The position numbers were made by a program, and so were the translations under genes. A DNA stretch of 64,000 nucleotides from NCBI GenBank assembly GCA_040879785.1, contig JBBDJR010000006.1, positions 410 to 64,409 on the forward strand. Reading direction: 5' to 3'. Below are positions 1-63,200 of this stretch, piece after piece. This DNA comes from Candidatus Pacearchaeota archaeon (GTDB taxonomy: Archaea; Nanobdellota; Nanobdellia; Pacearchaeales; GW2011-AR1). Below the pieces are notes generated by a model, which had not been told where the DNA came from, searched no databases, and saw nothing but the letters and a program-made list of their open reading frames with translations. Positions within the stretch are counted from its first letter, which is position 1, and each line of letters begins with the position of its first letter.

Positions 1-2839
1 CCCAACCTATCATATACCTATCTGCGTCATTCTCATCAAAATATATATTGCTGTCAGACGCATCAGCAGAACTTATCCGAATCGCCCCATACCCACTTGA
101 AGATTTAAAGTGAGCAACCTGATTCCCTCCAAGAACATCTAACTGATACCCAGGACTCGTCGTCCCAATCCCAACATTATCACTCGTCGAGTCGACGTGC
201 AGAACGTTCGTGTCGACCGTGAAGTTGTTAGCTCCAAGGTCCACGTTTCTCAACGCTCCGGTGTAAGGGACGTATGTGTCCGAGACGTTGCTCCCGCTGC
301 CGTCGTATAACGTTCCTCCGACGTGCAAGTCGCCCGTGAAGTTCCCGTCGCCGGCGACGTTAAGTAGGTTTTGGGGGGACGTCGTTCCGATGCCTACGTT
401 TCCTGTATTTTCCAAAAATAGAGATGTTCCTATTTCTCCGGATGAGTATTTTCCATAAAACTCTAACCCATCATATTCATTATCTGTTGAACTCGGTTTA
501 ATCTGCCAATAATCTCCTCTGTATCCTTCAATAACGAATCCTTCTGTATTATTAAAACTCCTAATTCCACCGTGCACATCTAACAGACCAGGACCCTGTC
601 CGATTCCAAAGGGGTCCGTCGTCCCGATGCCGACGTTGCCGTTGTTTGTTATTGTCATCTTAACTGACCCTGTCTCATACTCTCCTACATCAGTCGTCCC
701 AAATTGCAATCCTGCGTCTGCTGCACTGTGACCTGTACCATCCCTAAGATGGACTGAGCGAATCCATGCATTATATCCATTAACCGTACTGCTAACATCA
801 GCAGTACCAAACTCTATTGTAGAATAAACTTCTCCATAATCACTTGTTCCATCATCATTCGTCCCGACCCGAGAATCTGTAAATCGAACTTTGCCCGCAT
901 CTTTTGATGTCTCGAAAATATCCGAAGGACTCGTCGTTCCGATGCCGACGTTGCCCCCATCTTCAACCCATAATCCCAAATTACCTGCATCATCTTTTAG
1001 ACCTATCCCACTGCTATCCATTGCTTGAAGAGTATCATCAAATTTGAAAATTCCATCATTCATACCAAAACTTGCTCTCAGAGTACGTGCATCTGTTTCA
1101 TAAAAATCAATAAGGTGGTCTGAACCTAATTCTAATTGGCCATTACCTGATTGTTGCCTAATATACCCCCAGTCACTTGAATGTGCCGAAGCATCTTCAT
1201 ATTTCTCCCCAAAATAAATCCCTGTATAATCCGTATCATCAAACAAAACACTTGAAGCAGTAAAATCCAAATCCCCTGTCATCGTATCTCCGCTTTCATC
1301 AACATAAATATCCGAAATATCCGAACCACCCGAGCCATAGATTGTCCCGGTTACATTCAAATCTCCATCAACATTCGCATCTCCTCCAAGATACAAATCC
1401 CTCCATCTTAATGAAGAAGAACCAAGGTCAAAAGTATTATCAAAATCTTCTGCAGGTATTAAACTACCATTAATACTTAAAGTTGTAACCTCCAAGCTGG
1501 ATATATTATAAAAGAAACCCGTCTGTGCATAAATATCCCCTCCAATTATACTCAAACCATCATTCTGCCAACCATCATTAAAATCAAAATCTCCATAAAC
1601 AGACTTATTCAAAGGCATGAAAAAACTAGAATCATACCCATCAAGAGTATCAGAATCCTGAGCAGAGATATTAATACAATTTAAAGTATCACCAATCTGT
1701 TGAACAGCATGGCCCGCAGGACACGGGTCAGGATAGTCCGTAAGATTCGTCCAACCAAGAAGATTTGTTCCGTAATCAAGAGCGATACTATCTCCGGTAA
1801 TTGTTATTCCCGAGCCAGTATTAACAGACAAAACCCCTGCAAGAAACGAAAGAGCCGAGCCGGCAACAGAACTCGAAAGATTAACAGTATCAGTCCCGGC
1901 GTCCGTCGTCAAACCCCAACCCGGACTAACAACCAAAGGACTTCCATCCGCACCAGTCAAACCCGTCCCGGCAACAGAAGAAGCCAAATCAGGATTAGGA
2001 TAAGTCCCGGTCAACTGACCCCCTGCACTCTGCCCCTCATCAATATAATTATCTGAAAGGTATGTTGTATTCAAAGCAATATTATTCGCATTAACAATAA
2101 TCCCTGTCCCGGCACCAACATTCAAAGTAACATTCTCCGAAATCTGACCGCCATCAGTCAAACCAGAGCCGGCAATCACATAAGGATAATTATTAAGCTT
2201 ACTCCAATCAATATCCGCAGAAGCAGAAATGTCCTCATTCAAAATAGTCCCGTCGACAATATGAGTTGTATTCACAGAATCCGGAGCAATCTTCACATCA
2301 GTTACAGAACCGTTAGCCAGGTTTATTGTTCCTACAACACCCGTACCAAGCTCCAAAACATCATATGTTCCGGAAACATCTCCTCCAAAAATCGTCTCTG
2401 TATCCAAAACCTGATTACCATCCTGGAAAATAACATTCCCATAAATATTCGTAGTCGCATTAATATCCCCAATCACATTCAAGGTGTTTTGAGGCGTAAC
2501 GGTCCCAATCCCAACCAAATCACTATTCGAGTCAACAAATAAGACGTTCGTCCCGACCGTCAAATTCCCTCCAACATCAACATCTCCGGAAGCATCAATG
2601 TCCTGAACAAACAAACCCGTGATTCTATTAGCCAAACTTCCAAGGAAACCAAAAAATCCATCCTGAGCTTCAATATCTCCAGTAACTGTTAAATTCCCGG
2701 TATCTCCATGAATTCTCGTCAAATCATCTCCGGACTGATTCTGGAACACAAAATCCTCCTGTGCACTAACCAAAGGCACAAAAGCCAGGCTAAAAGCTAA
2801 GAAAATTGCAAATACTATAAATGTTAATCTAGTTTTCAT
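1..2839 (-). CDS. Large surface/adhesin-like protein, C-terminus beyond window edge, 5' end frame-disrupted
   Basis: The minus frame was hand-checked open at 1-60, 371-391, 1442-1500 and 2741-2800. It is absent from the ORF track because it runs off the edge. It encodes repeated GNVGIGTTSP / LNV.GD motifs and a GFF.FLG..NRITGLF.QDI.ASGDVDV block shared with 3253..5706. ATG 2839 reads MKTRLTL then TAG, and the signal-peptide core lies in another frame. Confidence 0.65.
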   Translation of the reverse strand, partial: MKTRLTFIVFAIFLAFSLAFVPLVSAQEDFVFQNQSGDDLTRIHGDTGNLTVTGDIEAQDGFFGFLGSLANRITGLFVQDIDASGDVDVGGNLTVGTNVLFVDSNSDLVGIGTVTPQNTLNVIGDINATTNIYGNVIFQDGNQVLDTETIFGGDVSGTYDVLELGTGVVGTINLANGSVTDVKIAPDSVNTTHIVDGTILNEDISASADIDWSKLNNYPYVIAGSGLTDGGQISENVTLNVGAGTGIIVNANNIALNTTYLSDNYIDEGQSAGGQLTGTYPNPDLASSVAGTGLTGADGSPLVVSPGWGLTTDAGTDTVNLSSSVAGSALSFLAGVLSVNTGSGITITGDSIALDYGTNLLGWTNLTDYPDPCPAGHAVQQIGDTLNCINISAQDSDTLDGYDSSFFMPLNKSVYGDFDFNDGWQNDGLSIIGGDIYAQTGFFYNISSLEVTTLSINGSLIPAEDFDNTFDLGSSSLRWRDLYLGGDANVDGDLNVTGTIYGSGGSDISDIYVDESGDTMTGDLDFTASSVLFDDTDYTGIYFGEKYEDASAHSSDWGYIRQQSGNGQLELGSDHLIDFYETDARTLRASFGMNDGIFKFDDTLQAMDSSGIGLKDDAGNLGLWVEDGGNVGIGTTSPSDIFETSKDAGKVRFTDSRVGTNDDGTSDYGEVYSTIEFGTADVSSTVNGYNAWIRSVHLRDGTGHSAADAGLQFGTTDVGEYETGSVKMTITNNGNVGIGTTDPFGIGQGPGLLDVHGGIRSFNNTEGFVIEGYRGDYWQIKPSSTDNEYDGLEFYGKYSSGEIGTSLFLENTGNVGIGTTSPQNLLNVAGDGNFTGDLHVGGTLYDGSGSNVSDTYVPYTGALRNVDLGANNFTVDTNVLHVDSTSDNVGIGTTSPGYQLDVLGGNQVAHFKSSSGYGAIRISSADASDSNIYFDENDADRYMIGW

Positions 2840-2856
2840 TTTCCACCTCCAAAATG

Positions 2857-2864
2857 TTTAAATA
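2857..2864. promoter_or_regulatory. A/T box TTTAAATA usable in both directions
   Basis: Lies about 25 nt from ATG 2839 on the minus strand and 30 nt from ATG 2887 on the plus strand. This matches the window-wide box-to-ATG spacing. Confidence 0.4.
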
Positions 2865-2886
2865 TTCTGAATCATTAGGCTCTTCT

Positions 2887-3093
2887 ATGGCTGAAACAGA
2901 CATTTCAATAAAAATAGATGTCCCCGAAGACTTAAAGCACGAATTTAGGTTAAACCTAGCTAAAGCAATTGAGGAAATGGTAAACCGTTTTGAGCTGTCA
3001 ATGGCAAAAGAAATCGTCTCAAAAAGTAAATTCACAGATAAAGATGCAGATGAGTTATCTGAAAAAATCAAACCATCAATGAGCAATGAATAA
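2887..3093 (+). CDS. Small antitoxin-like protein (alternative start 2854)
   Basis: MAETDISIKIDVPEDLKHEF...IVSKSKFTDKDADELSEKIK has K/E-rich composition typical of this proteome. The C-terminal SKSKFT.KDA.EL motif recalls small archaeal antitoxin-like proteins; this is from memory, not searched. A decayed PIN-like frame follows it. Confidence 0.45.
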   Translation: MAETDISIKIDVPEDLKHEFRLNLAKAIEEMVNRFELSMAKEIVSKSKFTDKDADELSEKIKPSMSNE

Positions 3094-3252
3094 AGAGGTT
3101 GATTAATTGAATTTTTAAGAGTTGTAATAGATTCTAACGGATTCTTTGATTTAGGAATTGCTGTTTCAACTAAACAAATATCATCCCAACTACCTAAAAT
3201 CTGATTCCTTACCTCATTCCCTTTTTCTATTCTAAACTCTTGTTTTCCCATA

Positions 3253-5706
3253 TTATCCATTCAACCTAAAGATAGTGTCCCCGTTCGCGTCCGTGAAAAT
3301 TCTTGTGTCTCCAACATACAAGTTATCCGTAACGTTCGCATCGCCTTCAACATTTAATTCGTTTTGAGGATTATTTGTTCCGATTCCGAGTCTCCCGGTG
3401 TCATTATCCCAAAAGAAATTAGCGTTATTCTGGGAAATCAAACCTCCAGGTCCTGAAAACAAAACAGAACCCTGAGTCAAAGCAGACAGAGTCAATTGCG
3501 AAAATGTAGGACTGCTCGTTGTGTTAATATCCTGAGGCAAAGAAAGAATCACTCCTCCACTGCCATCATCCGAAACAGAAATCTGATTCGCAGTCCCGTC
3601 AATCCAGGCAACAAGATTAGTATTCTCAACATCATTACTTGAATCCAAAGCCAAAAGCCTTGAAGCACTCAGACCGGGAATCCTTATTTTCCCCGAACTT
3701 TCATTAACAATAAAATTACCCGTAACATTCAAAGCGACCCCGTCCGAATTAGAGCCAGCAATAATCAAACCGCCCGTCATAGTGTCCCCCGCCTTCAAAA
3801 CATACTTGTCAGATAAATTCTCTCCAGACTCAACAAACGAATCCGCGAAAACAGTTCCGGTAACATTAGCATCTCCAATTACATTCAATTCGTGAGAAGG
3901 GTCAACAGTCCCTATTCCAACCACATTCCCATCAGAATCAACAAAAAGAGCATTAGTTCCGATTGTTAAATTTCCATCTACATCAGCACTCCCGGAAACA
4001 CTCGCGTCACCCGAAACACCCAAATCCGTTCCAACATCCAACCTACCAGTAACATTAATATCTCCGTCAGCAAGAAGGTCATTAATATTCAAATTTCCTG
4101 AGATTGTCACCTCGCTTGCCCCCGCATCCTGACTTATTATCGAATCTCCAAGCTCATTCCCGGCAACCCATCTCGGAATAGTATTAAGGGTTCCGGAACC
4201 ATTAACAACATTCTCAGGGTCAACATCAATACAAGTCAAAGTATCGCCAATCTGCTGGACCGCCTGACCCGCAGGACACGCATTAGGATAATTCTGCAAG
4301 AAAGTCCAGTTTATAGGCCCCGAAAACTCTCCCGCATAAACAGTTTGAGTTCCATTTATATCTCCAACAACATTTAACTTATTCTGCGGAGTGACTGTTC
4401 CTATACCCACAAGATTACTATTAGTGTCTGCAAACAGAAGATTGGTTCCAACTGTTAGGTTCTGACCAATCTCAAAATTATTATTGAAAAGATAATCTCC
4501 TGAAACAGTATCTCCTCCTCTCAAAACATAAGTCTGATTTCCAACAGTTTGATTTATCCAATTTAAGTCATTGGTTATCTCACTTCCAAGAATATCCTCT
4601 ACATTCTCTTTGTTTCCCTCATTTGTTCTCCAGAAATTGGAGCTATTTACATCAAGATTTGCCTCATCAGTTATTAACAAATAACGAGTATCTCCTTCCG
4701 TGAAGTTTATCCATGCAAGATCATTTGAAATCCAGCTTCCAAGAAGATCCCCTACATTATCTAAATCACCTTCATCTGTCCTCCACCATTCAGACCTATT
4801 AACATTCAAATCCGGTTCATCAGTCAAAAGAACATATCTACCATCACCATCTGTGAAGTTTATCCAATTTAAGTCATTAACAAACCAACTACCCATTATT
4901 TCAGAAATATTCCTCAATGCACTTCTATCTCCAGTGTTCCAATAATCAGACATATTTACATGAAGATCTCCTTGTCCCTCAGAGATTCTAGAATCAATAG
5001 TACCATTCAAATTAGATTCATTAAAATCTAACTGAGTTCCGTTAAAATCCAAATATAATTGAGAATCAGGACCTACAATCCAGTTGAAAGCTCCAAAAAA
5101 CCAATTTGCAGAAACATTTCCCGTAACATCAACATCTCCAGAGGCATTAATATCCTGAATAAACAAACCTGTAATCCTATTACCTACCTCCCCTAAGAAA
5201 TCAAAAAATCCACTTGAAGCAGAAACATTAAAATCACCAAGAGTCAGATTAGAATCAATATCAATCTCACTCAAATTAACCTGCGTCGCTCTAAAAGAAT
5301 ACGGAACACGACCAAGCTGAGAAACATCTTTTAATTCTCCGTCCCTTGAATAACAAAGATAATACTGTTTATCAAAATTCAGAGCACTCAAATTTCCTCC
5401 GCCCGAACCAACAGTTGGGAGATATAGAGAAACAATTCCTCTGGTGTCCGTTGCCTGAGTTGAAGAATGATTGTAAACAGGATTCTCACAAACAGTTTGA
5501 TTAGAACTCTCAGTTACATTGAATGCAAAATTAAAAGTTCCTGTTACAATATCTCCTGTAGAATCTGTTGTCTGAATATTTATATGAAACGTGTCATTAA
5601 TTTGCGCAGACAATCCTGGAGCTAAAAAAACTAACAAAAACACAATAATAAATAATGTCTTACACTTCACTTGCGCGGGAAAGATATTTAACGACACTTC
5701 TGACAC
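3253..5706 (-). CDS. Secreted surface/adhesin-like protein, paralog of 1..2839
   Basis: 817-aa ORF with an N-terminal hydrophobic signal (KCKTLFIIVFLLVFLAPGLSAQ; an internal GTG at 5670 is a possible start). It has three (V/L)GIGT..P...LNV.GD.N.T motifs and many N-x-S/T sequons. Confidence 0.85.
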   Translation of the reverse strand: MSEVSLNIFPAQVKCKTLFIIVFLLVFLAPGLSAQINDTFHINIQTTDSTGDIVTGTFNFAFNVTESSNQTVCENPVYNHSSTQATDTRGIVSLYLPTVGSGGGNLSALNFDKQYYLCYSRDGELKDVSQLGRVPYSFRATQVNLSEIDIDSNLTLGDFNVSASSGFFDFLGEVGNRITGLFIQDINASGDVDVTGNVSANWFFGAFNWIVGPDSQLYLDFNGTQLDFNESNLNGTIDSRISEGQGDLHVNMSDYWNTGDRSALRNISEIMGSWFVNDLNWINFTDGDGRYVLLTDEPDLNVNRSEWWRTDEGDLDNVGDLLGSWISNDLAWINFTEGDTRYLLITDEANLDVNSSNFWRTNEGNKENVEDILGSEITNDLNWINQTVGNQTYVLRGGDTVSGDYLFNNNFEIGQNLTVGTNLLFADTNSNLVGIGTVTPQNKLNVVGDINGTQTVYAGEFSGPINWTFLQNYPNACPAGQAVQQIGDTLTCIDVDPENVVNGSGTLNTIPRWVAGNELGDSIISQDAGASEVTISGNLNINDLLADGDINVTGRLDVGTDLGVSGDASVSGSADVDGNLTIGTNALFVDSDGNVVGIGTVDPSHELNVIGDANVTGTVFADSFVESGENLSDKYVLKAGDTMTGGLIIAGSNSDGVALNVTGNFIVNESSGKIRIPGLSASRLLALDSSNDVENTNLVAWIDGTANQISVSDDGSGGVILSLPQDINTTSSPTFSQLTLSALTQGSVLFSGPGGLISQNNANFFWDNDTGRLGIGTNNPQNELNVEGDANVTDNLYVGDTRIFTDANGDTIFRLNG
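4510..4959 (-). repeat. Three tandem ~50-codon repeats inside the adhesin CDS
   Basis: Residues ~250-399 read W(R/N)T..G........(I/L)(M/L)GS(W/E)..NDL.WIN(F/Q)T.G...Y.L three times. Confidence 0.8.
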
Positions 5707-6298: not shown

Positions 6299-6470
6299 TG
6301 AGCTTTTACTATGATTTCTTAAACAGGATATAGTTGCTCGCTCCGCTCGCAGATTTCCTAAACAATTAATATAATTAAATGAAAAACAAACGTGGATTAT
6401 AGTTAACGGGTTGGGAGGGTGGGATTTATTAAACACAAAAGACTAATTAAACAAATCCACACAAAAAAGA
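6299..6470 (+). repeat. Dispersed intergenic repeat, copy 1, with G-quadruplex motif
   Basis: Aligns by eye with 63028-63200. The two copies share the 17-mer TGCTCGCTCCGCTCGCA (6335-6351) and GGGTTGGGAGGGTGGG (6408-6423). Confidence 0.6.
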
Positions 6471-6510: not shown

Positions 6511-6685
6511 GAGCCTGTAGCTCTAGTTTGGCTACACTTAGACGAACTAGTAGTGAAAGCAAATACAACAAGCCTGTAACTCTAAGCCGACCACGCTTGG
6601 GCGGTTTTGTAGTGTCAGGCGAACGAAGTGAGCCTGTAGCTCTTTCCTAAGTAACGTCTGGAAACGTAGCGAAGGCGAATAAAAC
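6511..6685 (+). repeat. Three tandem ~59-bp units, each starting with the first 13 nt of tRNA-Ile
   Basis: GAGCCTGTAGCTC occurs at 6511 and 6630, and AGCCTGTAACTC at 6571, each followed by 43-47 nt of GC-rich sequence. The fourth copy at 6686 is the real tRNA. Confidence 0.8.
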
Positions 6686-6836
6686 GAGCCTGTAGCTCAG
6701 TCTGGTCAGAGCGCTGGTCTTATAAGAATACAACCCGTAAGGATTGTAATCTCTTGGAAATCAAAATTTGTCCTGGTCGCAGGTGGTTTTCATCTAAGAG
6801 AGCCAGAGGTCCTCGGTTCAAATCCGGGCAGGCTCA
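6686..6836 (+). tRNA. tRNA-Ile (anticodon TAT) with 76-nt intron (6725-6800)
   Basis: Hand-folded: acceptor GAGCCTG/CAGGCTC, D arm GCTC..GAGC, anticodon stem CTGGT/GCCAG, loop CTTATA|A, T arm CTCGG-TTCAAAT-CCGGG, discriminator A. No CCA is encoded. Confidence 0.8.
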
Positions 6837-6891
6837 TAGGATTTGAATCTCGGTTTAGTGTGGATTTTTCTTTAGGGAAAAGACGCATTAG

Positions 6892-6940
6892 GCCAGAATC
6901 TCGTTAGAGATGTTCTGAGCCCAAATCCGGGCAGGCTCAT
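6892..6940 (+). pseudogene. Degenerate second copy of the tRNA-Ile 3' half
   Basis: GCCAGA...CAAATCCGGGCAGGCTCAT; the last 19 nt are identical to 6819-6837. The T stem is not foldable. Confidence 0.6.
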
Positions 6941-8008: not shown

Positions 8009-8134
8009 GCATTTTTTATTTTTAATTTATTTTTTATTTAGATTAGAGAACACTTTTCTACCTTATTGAGATGATTCGTAAAAAAGTTATATTTAAAAAC
8101 TAATTCTGACATTCTTTTTGTATCTACACTGAAA

Positions 8135-8187
8135 GCCCTTGGCCGACGTCGCTACGGCAGTCTAGGGTGAGCGAACGAAGTGAGTGA
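8135..8187 (+). other. GC-rich leader module plus GAGCGAACGAAGTGAGTGA linker
   Basis: GCCCTTGGCCGACGTCGCTACGGCAGTCTAGGGT differs at 2 of 34 positions from 39917-39950. The linker is identical to 40006-40024. Confidence 0.6.
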
Positions 8188-8276
8188 GCCCCGATAGTTC
8201 AGTGGGTTTCTTTTTTAGAAAAAAAGAAACTACAATGGTAGAAAAAACTAAGATTGGAACTATCGGAAATCCAAAT
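8188..8276 (+). repeat. 15-nt tRNA-Glu 5' fragment plus 74-bp insert
   Basis: GCCCCGATAGTTCAG at 8188-8202 is identical to 8277-8291. The insert holds an 11-bp-stem hairpin (8206-8230) and GGAACTATCGG (8256-8266), antisense to the tRNA 5' region. Confidence 0.7.
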
Positions 8277-8394
8277 GCCCCGATAGTTCAGAGGCCAAGA
8301 ATGCGGCCCTTTCAAATAGCAACGCTTTGACGTTTGATTCAAAGTGAAGCTTTGAAGCACGGCCGTGACCCGGGTTCGAATCCCGGTCGGGGCG
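8277..8394 (+). tRNA. tRNA-Glu (anticodon TTC) with 45-nt intron (8315-8359)
   Basis: Acceptor GCCCCGA/TCGGGGC, D arm GTTC..GAAT, anticodon stem CGGCC/GGCCG, loop CTTTCA, T arm CCGGG-TTCGAAT-CCCGG. Confidence 0.9.
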
Positions 8395-8399
8395 TTCCC

Positions 8400-9266
8400 T
8401 TACTTCTTAAACCTAATCCCCCAATAACCTTTTTCAGTGTCAATCACACAGGTTTCCCCAATAGGTATTGTTAGATTTGGTTCGGAATGGCCAATAGGTT
8501 GATTCATGACTACAGGGCATTTAAAATTCTTAAAAAAATCTCTTAAATATGTATCAATATCTTCTCCACACTCTGTAAAATATCCTAAAATTACTCCTCT
8601 TACATGATCAAACTTCCCTGCTAATTTTAACTGACATAATATGTCATAAACTCTCCATGATCTCATCTTATAATCTTCTAAAAAAACTACTTTATCTTTA
8701 GTATCTATTTCAAACATTGTTCCCAAAGACCTACCTAAAAGCTCAACATTACCTCCAACAATCTTAGAACTAGCAGCCCCTTTGACGAGAGTGTCGGCTT
8801 CATTAAATGTAACTCTGTAATTCCTTTTAGCGATTACATCCTTTAGGCAGTTAATAGTTTTCATATCAAACTCTTTCTTGTTTCCCGTGTTAGGGCCGTG
8901 TAAACACCTTGAACCTGTCCTCTGATATATTGAATTTAGTAACAAGGTTACATCACTATAACCTAAAAAAATATTCTTTGACCTTTTTATAAGAGAGTAA
9001 TCTAAATAGGGCAATAAATGGATAGCCCCCATTCCGCCCTTTACAGAAGATATTAATGAATCTTCAACCCTATATGCATCATTTAATTCATCAGCCCTCC
9101 TAAGAAAATTACCTGCATAGGACAAATGTTTGTCCAATATATCCTCTCTATGTAAAATTTCTTCAAAATCAAGCTTATTCAACCTTCTTTTAGCCCTATT
9201 TAGATCCGACTTATCTATATTTCCTGAGGAAGCTACCAAAAAAACTCTCTTAAACTCCATTTTCAA
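8400..9266 (-). CDS. LD-carboxypeptidase / MccF-like serine peptidase (S66 family)
   Basis: GYSDVTLLLN nucleophile-region motif and C-terminal GHSEPNLTIPIG motif; ~290 aa. Confidence 0.75.
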   Translation of the reverse strand: MKMEFKRVFLVASSGNIDKSDLNRAKRRLNKLDFEEILHREDILDKHLSYAGNFLRRADELNDAYRVEDSLISSVKGGMGAIHLLPYLDYSLIKRSKNIFLGYSDVTLLLNSIYQRTGSRCLHGPNTGNKKEFDMKTINCLKDVIAKRNYRVTFNEADTLVKGAASSKIVGGNVELLGRSLGTMFEIDTKDKVVFLEDYKMRSWRVYDILCQLKLAGKFDHVRGVILGYFTECGEDIDTYLRDFFKNFKCPVVMNQPIGHSEPNLTIPIGETCVIDTEKGYWGIRFKK

Positions 9267-36205: not shown

Positions 36206-36274
36206 AGCCTGTGTTGGGAGTTGAATGAGAACCTCCTGCGGGTTCCTCACACCTCCAGCCTCCCAACTCCAAAA
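36206..36274 (-). repeat. Degenerate second copy of the tRNA-Thr 3' end, forming a hairpin
   Basis: 36206-36225 matches 36275-36294 at 19 of 20 positions. On the minus strand GTTGGGAG pairs with CTCCCAAC. Confidence 0.6.
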
Positions 36275-36391
36275 AGCCTGTGCTGGGAGTTGAACCCAGG
36301 ACCTCGTCATTTTTGGATTTCTTTAAGTACCGAACTTTTCTAAAGCTAGGCATACCAATGACGCGCTCTACCTAATCTGAGCTACACAGGC
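36275..36391 (-). tRNA. tRNA-Thr (anticodon GGT) with 42-nt intron (36311-36352)
   Basis: Acceptor GCCTGTG/CACAGGC, D arm GCTC..GAGC, anticodon stem CGTCA/TGACG, loop TTGGTA|A, T arm CTGGG-TTCAACT-CCCAG, discriminator T. Confidence 0.85.
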
Positions 36392-36454
36392 ACACTACGT
36401 TCGCCTGTTCGCTACAAAACCGCCCTGGCGAGGTCGGCTTAGAGTTACACAGGC
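36392..36454 (-). other. Leader module starting with a tRNA-Thr 5' fragment, ending in a GCGAACGTAGTGT linker
   Basis: The minus strand reads GCCTGTGTAACTCTAAGCCGACC..GGGCGGTTTTGTAG..CAGGCGAACGTAGTGT. It is homologous to module 6571-6629. Confidence 0.6.
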
Positions 36455-36506
36455 ACAATTAACAATCTAACAAAACAATCAGAATCAGAGTATAAAAAGT
36501 TTAAGT

Positions 36507-38421: not shown

Positions 38422-38447
38422 AGCCCCATAGTACAGTGGTCAAGTAG
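38422..38447 (+). pseudogene. Promoter-proximal 5' fragment of a tRNA-Gln gene
   Basis: AGCCCCATAGTACAGTGGTCAAGTAG matches 39391-39416 at 19 of 26 positions, with compensatory D-stem differences. No downstream tRNA body follows it. Confidence 0.65.
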
Positions 38448-39390
38448 TAAGATATATAAATGTATTTTTCTTTAATTATTTATGAGACTGAAATTAAAAA
38501 AGGGAAAACAAAGAGAACTAATAAAAGAATTTAAGGATGAAAAAAGATTAACATGGATTAATCTAGCAGACCTTCTTGGGATAAAATATGGTAGGCTAAA
38601 AGCATATGTTGATGAGACATCCTTAATTCCAAAAAGTTTTTATGAAAAACTTGATACAAAAAAGAAATTTTCAAAATATATAATTGAAGAGATGGTAGAG
38701 GGTTGGGGGAAGATAAAGGGAGGCAAAAATTCGGGAGGAAGTACTAAAGATATTAGTTTTCCAAGAGAATCAGGAAGTTTAGCAGAATTTTTTGGTATAA
38801 TGCTTGGTGACGGCAATTCGCATAAAACAGCATTTTATAATTCTAGAAAAGATAAAAGAGGAACCTATATGATAAGAATAGTTGGTGATTCAAGATATGA
38901 TAAAGACTATCTAATAAAATATGTAAAGCCATTGATTAGAAAGTTGTTTAACATAAATGTTCGTTCAGGCAAATTTAAGAAACAAAATGCTATTTATATT
39001 GAAGCACACAGTCGTCAACTAATAGAATTTTTAGAAGCAAAAGAATTTAAGCCAGGGAATAAAATAAAGAATAAATTGACAATTCCTGGATGGATACTTA
39101 ACGAAGAAACTTATCTGAAACACTGCCTTAGAGGTCTTATAGACACTGATGGGAGTATCCATAAAATGTCTAACAAGGATCCAAAATTAATTAGAATAAG
39201 TTTTAAGAATCATAATAAAACACTTCTTAAGAATACTAAGGAAGCATTTATCCAAATTGGATTCAATCCGTCAAAGATAATATTGAACAATGTTTTTTAC
39301 ATATCAAGACAGAGTGAAATAAAGAAATATTTAAAAGAGATTGGATTCTCCAACAATAGACATAAGGAAAGGTTAAAAGCTCTTAGAAAA
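38448..39390 (+). mobile_element. Insertion block carrying a LAGLIDADG endonuclease gene between the tRNA-Gln fragment and the intact tRNA-Gln
   Basis: Bounded by the imperfect 22-26-nt tRNA-derived direct repeat. Contains its own A/T box (ATATATAAA) ~25 nt before ATG 38482. Confidence 0.55.
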
Positions 39391-39405
39391 AGCCCCATCG
39401 TCTAG
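38482..39405 (+). CDS. Double-motif LAGLIDADG homing endonuclease with N-terminal HTH-like extension
   Basis: LAEFFGIMLGDGNS and LRGLIDTDGSI motifs ~115 aa apart. The stop codon TAG (39403-39405) lies inside the tRNA-Gln D arm. Confidence 0.85.
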   Translation: MRLKLKKGKQRELIKEFKDEKRLTWINLADLLGIKYGRLKAYVDETSLIPKSFYEKLDTKKKFSKYIIEEMVEGWGKIKGGKNSGGSTKDISFPRESGSLAEFFGIMLGDGNSHKTAFYNSRKDKRGTYMIRIVGDSRYDKDYLIKYVKPLIRKLFNINVRSGKFKKQNAIYIEAHSRQLIEFLEAKEFKPGNKIKNKLTIPGWILNEETYLKHCLRGLIDTDGSIHKMSNKDPKLIRISFKNHNKTLLKNTKEAFIQIGFNPSKIILNNVFYISRQSEIKKYLKEIGFSNNRHKERLKALRKSPIV

Positions 39406-39463
39406 CGGTCAAAGATCTGGCCCTCTGGAGGCTAGGACCCAGGTTCGAATCCTGGTGGGGCTA
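39391..39463 (+). tRNA. tRNA-Gln (anticodon CTG), no intron
   Basis: Acceptor AGCCCCA/TGGGGCT (A1-U72), D arm GTCT..AGAT, anticodon stem TGGCC/GGCTA, loop CTCTGGA, T arm CCAGG-TTCGAAT-CCTGG. Confidence 0.85.
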
Positions 39464-39868: not shown

Positions 39869-40024
39869 GCCCTGATTTTACTAAGCCAGGGCAGATTGGA
39901 TGAATGCAAGGTACAAGCCCTTGGCCGACGTCGCTATGGCGGTCTAGGGTGAACGAAGCGTAGCGAAGTGAGCCCTGATTTAGCCACGCTTGGACGAAGC
40001 AGGGTGAGCGAACGAAGTGAGTGA
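39869..40024 (+). other. Three GC-rich hairpin modules plus linkers forming the tRNA-Glu(CUC) leader
   Basis: M1 39869-39892 (GCCCTG..CAGGGC), M2 39917-39950 (GCCCT..AGGGT), M3 39972-40005 (GCCCTG..CAGGGT). Linkers are GAACGAAGCGTAGCGAAGTG and GAGCGAACGAAGTGAGTGA. Confidence 0.6.
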
Positions 40025-40142
40025 GCCCCCGTAGTTCAGAGGCCAAGAATGCGGCCCTCTCAAATGGCAAAGCTTTGACGTTTGATTCAAAGTGAAGCTT
40101 TGAAGTACGGCCGTGACCCGAGTTCGAATCTCGGCGGGGGCG
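40025..40142 (+). tRNA. tRNA-Glu (anticodon CTC) with 45-nt intron (40063-40107)
   Basis: Acceptor GCCCCCG/CGGGGGC, the same D and anticodon arms as the 8277 copy, loop CTCTCA, T arm CCGAG-TTCGAAT-CTCGG. Confidence 0.9.
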
Positions 40143-63027: not shown

Positions 63028-63200
63028 AGATTTTTACTCCAACTCATTAAACAGAAATATACTGCTCGCTCCGCTCGCAAATTACCAAAACAACTAAAAA
63101 AATTAAATAAAAAACAAACGCGGATTTATGGTTAACATGGGTCGGGAGGGCGGGACCTAAGAACTTATTAAGAATAGGATACTAATTAAACAAACCCGAA
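63028..63200 (+). repeat. Dispersed intergenic repeat, copy 2, with G-quadruplex motif
   Basis: TGCTCGCTCCGCTCGCA (63063-63079) and GGGTCGGGAGGGCGGG (63139-63154). Collinear with 6299-6470. Confidence 0.6.

Follow-up and report, generated by a model that had tools for sequence, protein, structure and literature searches.

Organization of the tRNA-Glu(UUC) locus

Here, we describe a small non-coding unit that directly precedes the tRNA-Glu(UUC) gene in a 64-kb stretch of contig JBBDJR010000006.1 from a Candidatus Pacearchaeota archaeon. The whole stretch is referred to below as the window, all coordinates are window positions, and L numbers designate related loci or contigs recovered in pattern scans. 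The unit spans 89 bp (8188–8276) and is composed of an orphan 15-mer and a 74-nt insert (8203–8276), after which the complete tRNA gene begins. The 15-mer, GCCCCGATAGTTCAG, occurs exactly twice in the 64 kb, at 8188–8202, where it is an orphan copy of tRNA-Glu nt 1–15, and at 8277–8291, where it opens the gene, and the two copies are identical at 15/15 positions; allowing up to three mismatches adds a single match, the 5' end of tRNA-Glu(CUC), with two mismatches. The gene itself (8277–8394, plus strand) is recovered at full length by Rfam model RF00005 (51.5 bits, model positions 1–71) and consists of exon 1 (8277–8314), a canonical 45-nt intron at position 37/38 (8315–8359), and exon 2 (8360–8394). 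Once joined, the exons give the sequence of intronless orthologues (e.g., L002) and fold with acceptor and T arms. An initial annotation of this DNA had pointed out the linker upstream of the unit, the duplicated 15-mer, and the 74-nt insert, and all three were found again exactly as described.

The leader and the insert can be divided into segments, all on the plus strand. The most distal is an older promoter-like box of the locus, AGTTATATTTAAAAAC (8085–8100), assigned only by its similarity to the box (A/T)AGTTATCTTTAAAAA(G/C), which lies 24–60 nt upstream of tRNA-Glu or its leader units at most related loci. It is followed by a leader hairpin, module 1 (8135–8168), whose GCCCT...AGGGT stem mimics the 5' strand of the tRNA-Glu acceptor; homologues of this hairpin with altered stem sequences precede tRNA-Glu in L015, L016, L018, L024, L030, L041, L052, and L056. 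Between the hairpin and the orphan 15-mer lies the purine-rich linker GAGCGAACGAAGTGAGTGA (8169–8187), identical to 40006–40024 in the leader of tRNA-Glu(CUC). Its core, GCGAACGAAGTGAG, is also present at 6619–6632, and with up to three mismatches it returns nine matches against 2.5 expected.

The insert opens with a copy of a dispersed 48-nt repeat (8203–8250), made up of a T, an A/T palindrome hairpin, and CTACAATGGTAGAAAAAACTA, and 98% identical over its 48 nt to the sequence immediately 3' of tRNA-Ile in L036. The hairpin, previously described with an 11-bp stem, is real and measures 12 bp (8205–8216 paired with 8220–8231), and a T3CT6 run lies inside the palindrome. A joint, AGATT (8251–8255; AGTTA in L067), leads to the antisense segment GGAACTATCGG (8256–8266), of which 8257–8266 is the perfect complement of tRNA nt 4–13 (8191–8200 or 8280–8289). 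The last ten positions before tRNA nt 1 are a spacer, AAATCCAAAT (8267–8276), which reads TCAAGACGAACAA in L067 and is thus not conserved; in tRNA-Glu cassettes other than these two, the spacer is mostly ..GGAGCAAA.

There is no open reading frame (ORF) in the 74-nt insert, and besides chance-level matches the Rfam 15 covariance models returned only the tRNA from 8100–8420 at E ≤ 10. Ribozymes and C/D or H/ACA guides were rejected on the lack of an Rfam match and, by eye, of C/D boxes. A pairing of leader and trailer (8177–8187 with 8396–8406, 10/11 bp) is not possible at the CUC locus, L052, or L015 and was therefore treated as chance. The near-terminal inverted 8-mers earlier ascribed to the insert match at only 7/8 positions and are absent from the orthologous L067 cassette, which has a different spacer; they are probably fortuitous.

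Filled and empty alleles

The initial annotation had read the UUC locus as the tRNA-Glu(CUC) locus plus 89 bp. The CUC gene (40025–40142) scores 48.9 bits in Rfam with permissive filters, and the two tRNA-plus-intron sequences are approximately 92% identical, counted by hand on the alignment. Both leaders share the hairpin, which is 92.9% identical over 42 nt (8135–8168 against 39916–39957), and the last 24 nt before the tRNA (CUC) or before the 15-mer (UUC) are identical. This much of the comparison stands. Collinearity outside the 89 bp, on which the reading had been staked beforehand, does not: the alignment reveals an additional unit of approximately 54 nt in the CUC leader (39951–40005), comprising the linker-like sequence GAACGAAGCGTAGCGAAGTGA and the hairpin GCCCTGATTTAGCCACGCTTGGACGAAGCAGGGT, and a further mini-hairpin at 39869–39892. 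The CUC leader as a whole is a series of three acceptor-mimicking hairpin units, located at 39869–39892, at 39917–39950 with a linker, and at 39972–40005 with a linker. For annotation of such genes, it should be mentioned that Rfam with default filters, applied to the whole window, missed the intron-bearing tRNA-Glu(CUC) despite its score, and that ARAGORN without the intron option detected one of the five window tRNAs.

A cleaner empty site than the CUC locus is offered by L052, a related metagenome-assembled genome (MAG), where a window-type hairpin and linker directly abut an intact tRNA-Glu(UUC). A second comparison is provided by L036, whose cassette sits behind a promoter and leader that are, as estimated by eye, approximately 95% identical to those of L044, L002, L014, and L038; in these four, nothing separates the leader from the tRNA. 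In each of the two comparisons, it is the upstream copy that retains the native upstream sequence, indicating that this copy is the orphaned original, and the empty alleles support the reading of the unit as an insertion. L067, from a 407-kb contig, shows the filled state in another context: there, an unrelated leader precedes a nearly identical cassette, and the tRNA-Glu that follows is intronless and differs in its anticodon stem. Between the window and L067, the orphan copy, the repeat, and the antisense (11/11) are conserved, whereas the spacer has diverged.

Recurrence among DPANN relatives

A protein-based search of genome contigs for syntenic loci, with the adjacent S66 peptidase as the query, gave no relatives, and a search for contigs encoding the neighbouring protein gave one 3.4-kb Logan contig that ends 33 nt short of the tRNA. 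Relatives were obtained with an exact-pattern scan extending from the D arm to the anticodon arm of tRNA-Glu, which retrieved 56 MAG contigs of Pacearchaeota, Woesearchaeota, and Nanoarchaeota and thereby places the organism among the DPANN archaea. Together with the window, these contigs form the census set, in which 117 tRNAs, including 58 tRNA-Glu loci, were detected.

The cassette architecture is a recurrent, directional, and clade-wide class in this set. An upstream copy of the gene's own first 14–15 nt is present at 17 of the 58 tRNA-Glu genes, 46–118 nt away, and always matches the local tRNA-Glu variant (e.g., GCCCCAATAG, GCCCCTGTAG, and GCCCCCGTAG). Among all 117 tRNAs, 30 have their own 5' 13-mer upstream and seven their own 3' 13-mer downstream, while the reciprocal controls (5' 13-mer downstream, 3' 13-mer upstream) yielded 0 and 0. 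The exact repeats cluster at lengths of 13–16 nt, with a few of 24–27 nt (break points at nt 13, 14, 15, 16, and 24–27), placing the break within the D-arm coding region. A break in the D loop had been noted earlier as common to the window loci, and the Ile and Thr loci indeed show a break in the D arm, as does the Gln locus at a position further along the arm. The Thr cassette core of L017 and the Ile cassette core of L021, from different genomes, are 94.6% identical over 56 nt. Upstream copies have decayed in L031, L033, and L036, where they carry acceptor-breaking mutations never seen in downstream copies, and in the Gln fragment of L013.

Comparable units accompany the other intron-bearing tRNA genes of the window, where they are mostly irregular hairpins in which a tRNA-like 5' strand pairs with its complement near the 3' end. 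The tRNA-Ile(UAU) gene (6686–6836) is preceded by three units, each opening with a copy of its first 13 nt, GAGCCTGTAGCTC, at spacings of 59, 60, and 56 nt and with different interiors; on its 3' side lies a mirror-image unit whose end repeats the last 18 nt of the tRNA (region 6511–6940). The tRNA-Thr(GGU) gene lies in a region (36206–36455, minus strand) with one upstream and one downstream unit, and the Thr unit is 92% identical over 38 nt to the second Ile unit.

Partial tRNA duplications around integrated elements are, as is generally known, the archaeal norm (PMC8371274), and the cassettes could accordingly be relics of integration, in which a virus or plasmid with a tyrosine recombinase left attL and attR copies of the tRNA and its interior was deleted down to 74 bp. 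The precedent from Caldiarchaeum, discussed below, includes a recombinase (PMC3293823), and copies of tRNA 3' ends are found 0.5–4 kb downstream with cargo between in L052 (approximately 490–4430), L006, L016, and L019. The 4-kb island of L052 encodes, as judged by eye, an insertion sequence (IS)-like transposase, a HicB-like protein, and a large ATPase/regulator-like protein, and regions of this type would seem to be islands of the usual sort, integrated at the 3' ends of tRNAs within this clade. The cassettes are another matter: more than 30 independent deletions would all have had to end as hairpin units of 46–120 nt with matched antisense, a 5' copy more than 200 nt upstream was found at 0 of the 117 tRNAs, and at least nine tRNA species have the same 48-nt repeat joined to their nt 14. 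Nor was an integrase gene or fragment noticed beside the cassettes, although the ORFs of the related loci were not searched against protein families. We therefore regard a relic of this kind as distinctly unlikely.

The dispersed 48-nt repeat

A search for the insert in the full genome and in related MAGs had been suggested in the initial annotation, and its first 48 nt represent a multi-copy element of Nanoarchaeota (Pacearchaeota and Woesearchaeota) without an ORF. A pattern scan of metagenomes for the hairpin part found it in at least 120 contigs, and the matches listed comprise 106 unique contexts, to which the following counts refer. The repeat extends beyond the pattern used to find it: TAGAAAA, which was outside the search pattern, follows in 100 of the 106 contexts, and a T precedes the GGG of the repeat in 92. 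A tRNA lies within 150 nt in 37 (35%): in 19 of them it begins downstream, on the strand of the repeat, five have the repeat directly 3' of a tRNA, three are starts of canonical introns, and ten involve a tRNA on the other strand. At least 18 unique loci show the full arrangement, that is, tRNA nt 1–14 joined to TGGGTTTC, 20–60 nt, an antisense to the local tRNA, and the intact gene; these loci span at least nine tRNA identities (Thr, Glu, Gln, Lys, Ala, Met, Arg, Ile, and Phe), and in 12 of the 18 the antisense reaches z < -2.

Other copies are associated with the starts of genes. The repeat lies 9–77 nt upstream of ORF starts in 21 of the listed unique contexts, upstream of 16S rRNA in three, and upstream of tRNAs in 19, with an orientation bias of 12 to 3 (p = 0.035). 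The downstream ORFs, identified by eye without a family search, include PCNA, uL15, P0, an L7Ae/L30e-like protein, and other housekeeping genes. In L090, L125, and L127, the repeat is placed approximately 25 nt upstream of the 16S rRNA 5' end, where a promoter is expected. The most economical reading of these positions is that the repeat would be a terminator-plus-promoter module, either mobile or repeatedly recruited. A small ORF through the repeat (MGFFFRKKETTMVEK...) was rejected on the grounds that the hairpin loop varies in length by 2–7 nt, in steps that are not multiples of three, and the long form of the repeat in L062 has no Rfam match.

Two further settings were observed. In L087, L093/L153, and L107/L155, canonical tRNA introns contain the repeat, which begins 1–2 nt past the 37/38 splice site; should it stop transcription and start it anew, each of these genes would yield two separate pieces, in the manner of a cis-encoded split tRNA. 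In L157 (8283–8370) and approximately 25 similar metagenome contigs, it lies antisense inside a gene that resembles endonuclease III by eye, flanked by an 8–9-nt direct repeat, CACGAAA(A)T, and an inverted repeat. This arrangement may represent an mRNA intron, a split gene, or a pseudogene, and the gene also requires a frameshift at an A-run.

The fixed junctions also bear on whether a mobile element is needed at all. During replication or repair, template switching or fold-back synthesis could have copied the 5' end both directly and in inverted orientation and taken the filler from nearby, and a direct-inverted-direct order is generally known as the classic outcome of two template switches. 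Opposite G10 the antisense carries a C, and the D stem of the tRNA itself carries a U there, so the antisense was templated on the 5' strand and not copied from tRNA nt 22–25; the filler is similar to what follows tRNA-Ile on its 3' side in the relative L036, and many relatives have tRNA-Ile upstream of tRNA-Glu, as does the window, at a distance of 1.4 kb. Against such an accident, the same junction (nt 14 followed by TGGGTTTC) and filler occur at no fewer than nine tRNA species on unrelated contigs, cores are common to different genomes, and the cassette is conserved between the window and L067 in different contexts, on which random accidents would not converge. We consider this origin very unlikely. 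A tandem duplication running from the tRNA-Ile 3' end (TAGGCTCA) to the D arm (TAGCTCA) was likewise rejected: it predicts the same spacer before both copies, which is true of L176 and false for the window, L067, L071, and L076.

Absence of a splicing signal

The upstream 15-mer could alternatively be the 5' exon of a tRNA with a true D-loop intron, in which case 8203–8291 would be removed by the splicing endonuclease and a ligase. Several observations are compatible with this. The predicted minimum free energy (MFE) structure of 8188–8394 takes the upstream copy for the acceptor stem; cassettes are commoner at intron-bearing tRNA-Glu genes (14/26 vs. 3/31; Fisher p = 4e-4, uncorrected for phylogeny); the repeat is found inside three canonical introns, and a few cassette cores resemble canonical introns; and Nanoarchaeum and ARMAN, which are related to the clade, have broad-specificity endonucleases (PMC5829648).

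The decisive feature would be a motif of the bulge-helix-bulge (BHB) type, and none can be drawn. In such a motif, whether strict or relaxed, a 4-bp helix holds apart two 3-nt bulges that mark where exon and intron meet. For each splice pair that restores the tRNA, this central helix would have to form between two copies of one and the same 4-mer, located two nt upstream of the splice site: AGUU:AGUU includes two wobbles and leaves flanking helices of 1 and 0 bp, and GUUC:GUUC fails outright. This test was performed by hand with a geometry calibrated on the gene's own 37/38 intron (CUUU / CA|A ... GAAG / CA|C), whereas an automated strict BHB scan missed that canonical intron and was not used as evidence. 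Moreover, the downstream gene is complete, making splicing unnecessary, acceptor-breaking mutations are confined to upstream copies, and the break points vary from locus to locus. Splicing of the upstream copy had been named as the observation that would overturn the insertion, and with no BHB the insertion is not contradicted; the D-loop intron itself we find hardly credible.

Related possibilities were rejected as well. A split or permuted tRNA gene is at odds with the intact gene, and with a complement that pairs with exon nt 4–13 and not with the trailer. A BHB at the junction of leader and tRNA, cleaved by the endonuclease instead of RNase P, could be drawn from CCAA/UUGG in the window and GAAC/GUUC in L067; the cassettes show no conserved pair (consensus ..GGAGCAAA|G). 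Sharing of sequence between cassette cores and canonical introns is limited to a few modules and is not a general rule: BLAST found nothing at E ≤ 0.01; in Smith-Waterman comparisons, four core/intron pairs scored well above shuffles (e.g., the L043 cassette against its own intron).

The antisense segment and predicted folding

The initial annotation had assigned the antisense to tRNA nt ~3–13, in good agreement with the perfect complement of nt 4–13, and had suggested that it could sequester either copy, for which the predicted folds do allow. The unit (8188–8276) is predicted to fold at -27 kcal/mol (z = -4.7), and the duplex of antisense and orphan copy at -16.9 kcal/mol (z = -4.3 relative to shuffles), among the strongest antisenses found. 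When the 40 nt before the gene were compared with tRNA nt 1–16, the 30 copy-bearing loci had a median z of -2.1, with z < -2 in 57%, as opposed to a median of +0.4 and 0% at the 85 copy-less loci. In the window transcript, pairing of the copy with the antisense contributes approximately -14 kcal/mol and the hairpin of antisense and tRNA -14.2 kcal/mol, so that the two alternatives are predicted to be nearly isoenergetic. If the upstream copy is removed, the predicted fold has tRNA nt 4–13 trapped by the antisense (-55.9 vs. -49.4 kcal/mol).

These properties raise the possibility of a maturation switch, in which the leader antisense would hold the tRNA 5' end inactive and the orphan copy, whether part of that transcript or a separate small RNA that ends at the T-run, would release it, thereby tying tRNA-Glu maturation to the activity of the upstream promoter. 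Such a switch would fit the near-equal pairings and the predicted blocking of the acceptor stem by the antisense alone. It would also fit the restriction of the antisense to loci with a copy, the conservation of the pair between the window and L067 while the flanks diverge, and the surroundings of the orphan copy, which like a small RNA gene has a promoter-like box and a leader hairpin upstream and a hairpin with T3CT6 6 nt downstream. However, the units are patchy among close relatives, and several tRNAs carry two or three different ones, which resembles accumulation more than design; a significant antisense is missing from 20 of the 33 units, upstream copies have decayed at the four loci named above, and no regulator or signal is known. 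On balance we think a switch unlikely; if the pair of copy and antisense does control maturation, it would be a new kind of regulation at the tRNA level.

Proposed insertion at the DNA level

The interpretation that we favour, with about even confidence, is that a small non-coding cassette was inserted at the DNA level, orphaning the old 5' end of the gene, supplying a new one, and carrying a self-neutralising pair of copy and antisense. An insertion or recombination event at the D-loop coding position would bring or create the replacement 5' end, and the mature tRNA would be derived from the downstream complete copy by 5' cleavage at 8276/8277 followed by ordinary splicing of the 37/38 intron. 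The repeat would act as a terminator-plus-promoter module, as its location just upstream of rRNA, tRNA, and housekeeping genes elsewhere suggests. The orphan copy and the antisense would pair in cis or in trans, and neither would then disturb the folding of the real tRNA. If, as we propose, either of them alone is harmful, their strict co-occurrence and their conservation would be accounted for. Tandem arrays also exist, such as the three units at the window tRNA-Ile.

Several points weigh against this interpretation. The Pfam scan of nine window ORFs contained no recombinase, transposase, or reverse transcriptase, the only mobile-type protein being the LAGLIDADG ORF at tRNA-Gln, and the lack of any noticed integrase near the cassettes, within the limit given above, counts here too. 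We know of no mechanism that makes an antisense matched to each local tRNA beside a constant repeat. Direct repeats flank 21 of 100 listed repeat contexts, 18 of these 21 being tRNAs, and this near-confinement to tRNA contexts shows that they are not an ordinary target-site duplication. The repeat was found in no viral contig, and a search of such contigs for attP-like sites gave two chance matches in coding sequence; the repeat could be a conserved promoter or operator motif rather than a mobile element. Finally, in the read-through transcript (8188–8394) it is the upstream copy that builds the predicted acceptor stem. The T3CT6 run 6 nt past the orphan copy may terminate transcription and leave copy and antisense on different RNAs, and in combination with the predicted trapping, separate RNAs would fit a regulatory device better than a neutral scar.

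A bolder version of the insertion is that very small mobile cassettes home to the D-loop position (nt 13–16) of many DPANN tRNA genes by means of a "guide" complementary to the 5' strand and rebuild the 5' end that they displace. We put this forward tentatively and expect that it is probably wrong. Each junction point (tRNA nt 14, the discriminator base, or the 37/38 splice site) corresponds to the end or the loop of an RNA, on account of which homing could involve an RNA-level step, with cleaved tRNA pieces ligated to repeat RNA and copied back into DNA, or an enzyme that acts on single-stranded DNA at extruded tRNA-gene loops. If true, this would constitute a new route of tRNA gene fragmentation and re-promotion in a lineage known for split tRNAs.

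Other elements of the window and related contigs

A LAGLIDADG ORF (38482–39405; Pfam PF14528) is situated between a diverged tRNA-Gln D-arm fragment (38423–38448) and an intact tRNA-Gln(CUG), in the region 38423–39463. The fragment resembles the Gln tRNAs of relatives, and the stop of the ORF overlaps tRNA-Gln nt 1–15. L013 shows the same layout, its ORF being 307 aa long and its fragment decayed, with a TATATAAAT box after the fragment. The arrangement suggests that a homing-endonuclease gene invaded the tRNA gene and took the place of its 5' end. The insert at tRNA-Glu(UUC) had been proposed to be a decayed relative of this element; blastn-short of the insert against the window gave only A/T matches of 13–14 nt, and the two loci have only their layout in common (5' fragment, insert, and intact tRNA).

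The purine motif GAAC(G/A)AAGTGA forms the post-hairpin linker at 6619–6632, 8171–8184, and 40008–40021, and in L036, L007, and L017 it occupies the loop of hairpins 3' of tRNAs. Its GA...GA flanks could form a K-loop or K-turn, making it a candidate L7Ae site. An intergenic repeat of approximately 110 nt (CTCGCTCCGCTCGCA...GGGTYGGGAGGGYGGGA), for which Rfam returned no match, is present at 6323–6425 and 63048–63160 (86% identical), one of its copies closely preceding the tRNA-Ile array.

For annotation in general, these features matter in that orphan fragments and leader hairpins will escape notice or be called wrongly, and that the 48-nt repeat, an unannotated signal, is very common in these organisms upstream of genes for rRNA, tRNA, and ribosomal proteins.

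Comparison with known systems

How archaeal tRNA genes are interrupted, split, and rejoined is a long-standing question, with Nanoarchaeota as its showcase, and so far a single population-level example, the tRNA-Thr of Caldiarchaeum, ties a tRNA 5' fragment to a mobile element. In Caldiarchaeum subterraneum, the fragment tRNA-Thr-F, a 1.8-kb element bearing a recombinase, and the intact tRNA-Thr-II follow each other in that order (Sugahara et al., 2012; PMC3293823). As at tRNA-Glu(UUC), the orphan 5' fragment (there nt 1–27) keeps the original upstream sequence, inserted DNA comes next, and the intact copy stands downstream; the break is in the D arm, and an insertion-free allele exists in the population (PMC3293823). 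The insert differs, being 1.8 kb with a recombinase there and 74 bp with no ORF here. No antisense is described there, and one locus in one population contrasts with dozens of loci at many tRNAs and genomes that share a 48-nt repeat.

The known att cases mostly duplicate the 3' part of the tRNA, enclose kilobase-sized inserts, and carry an integrase. Here, the 5' 13–16 nt are duplicated, the insert is tiny, no integrase was noticed beside the loci, and an inverted copy lies beside the intact gene. What the cassettes share with the attL/attR partial tRNA duplications of archaeal integrative viruses and plasmids, which employ SSV- and pNOB8-type tyrosine recombinases, is the direct repeat of one tRNA end around an insert and an element-borne copy that keeps the gene intact (reviewed in PMC8371274). 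At 8188–8291, this layout is seen in the 15/15 direct repeat and in the downstream copy that completes the gene, with L052 as the empty site.

BHB introns and the split and permuted tRNAs of Nanoarchaeum and Thermoproteales resemble the cassettes in disrupting tRNA genes away from the anticodon, including in the D arm, in having intervening sequence complementary to an exon, and in belonging to a related clade (PMC4090602, PMC4033280). They differ from the present locus, where a BHB cannot be drawn, nothing is missing from the downstream gene, and the complement forms an uninterrupted helix of 10 bp with the exon copy.

Miniature inverted-repeat transposable elements (MITEs), repetitive extragenic palindromic (REP)-like repeats, and "mobile promoters" are short, conserved, ORF-less hairpin sequences that occur in many copies upstream of unrelated genes. 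The 48-nt repeat agrees with them in its numerous near-identical and dispersed ORF-less copies. In contrast, it has no terminal inverted repeats, the 7/8 inverted 8-mers of the window being absent in L067, and no constant target-site duplication; in addition, more than a third of its listed contexts are at tRNAs, and its junction is fixed at tRNA nt 14, the discriminator base, or the 37/38 splice site.

Bacterial attenuator and anti-terminator leaders contain three segments that pair alternatively. The orphan copy, the antisense, and the tRNA 5' end would correspond to segments 1, 2, and 3, with mutually exclusive 1:2 and 2:3 helices of similar predicted stability; the difference is that neither a terminator nor translation is coupled to the choice, and the step controlled would be tRNA folding and 5' processing.

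A full-text literature search found no description of these cassettes or of the 48-nt repeat, and a 2026 preprint on complete Nanobdellota genomes mentions only putative split tRNAs (bioRxiv 10.64898/2026.05.13.725050). A tRNA end duplicated around inserted DNA is an already known layout, while the cassette and the repeat have apparently not been described before. With dozens of miniature cases and both empty and filled alleles, they provide a large natural data set for studying the mechanism, and what sets them apart from the known systems is their abundance, their fixed junctions, and their matched antisense.

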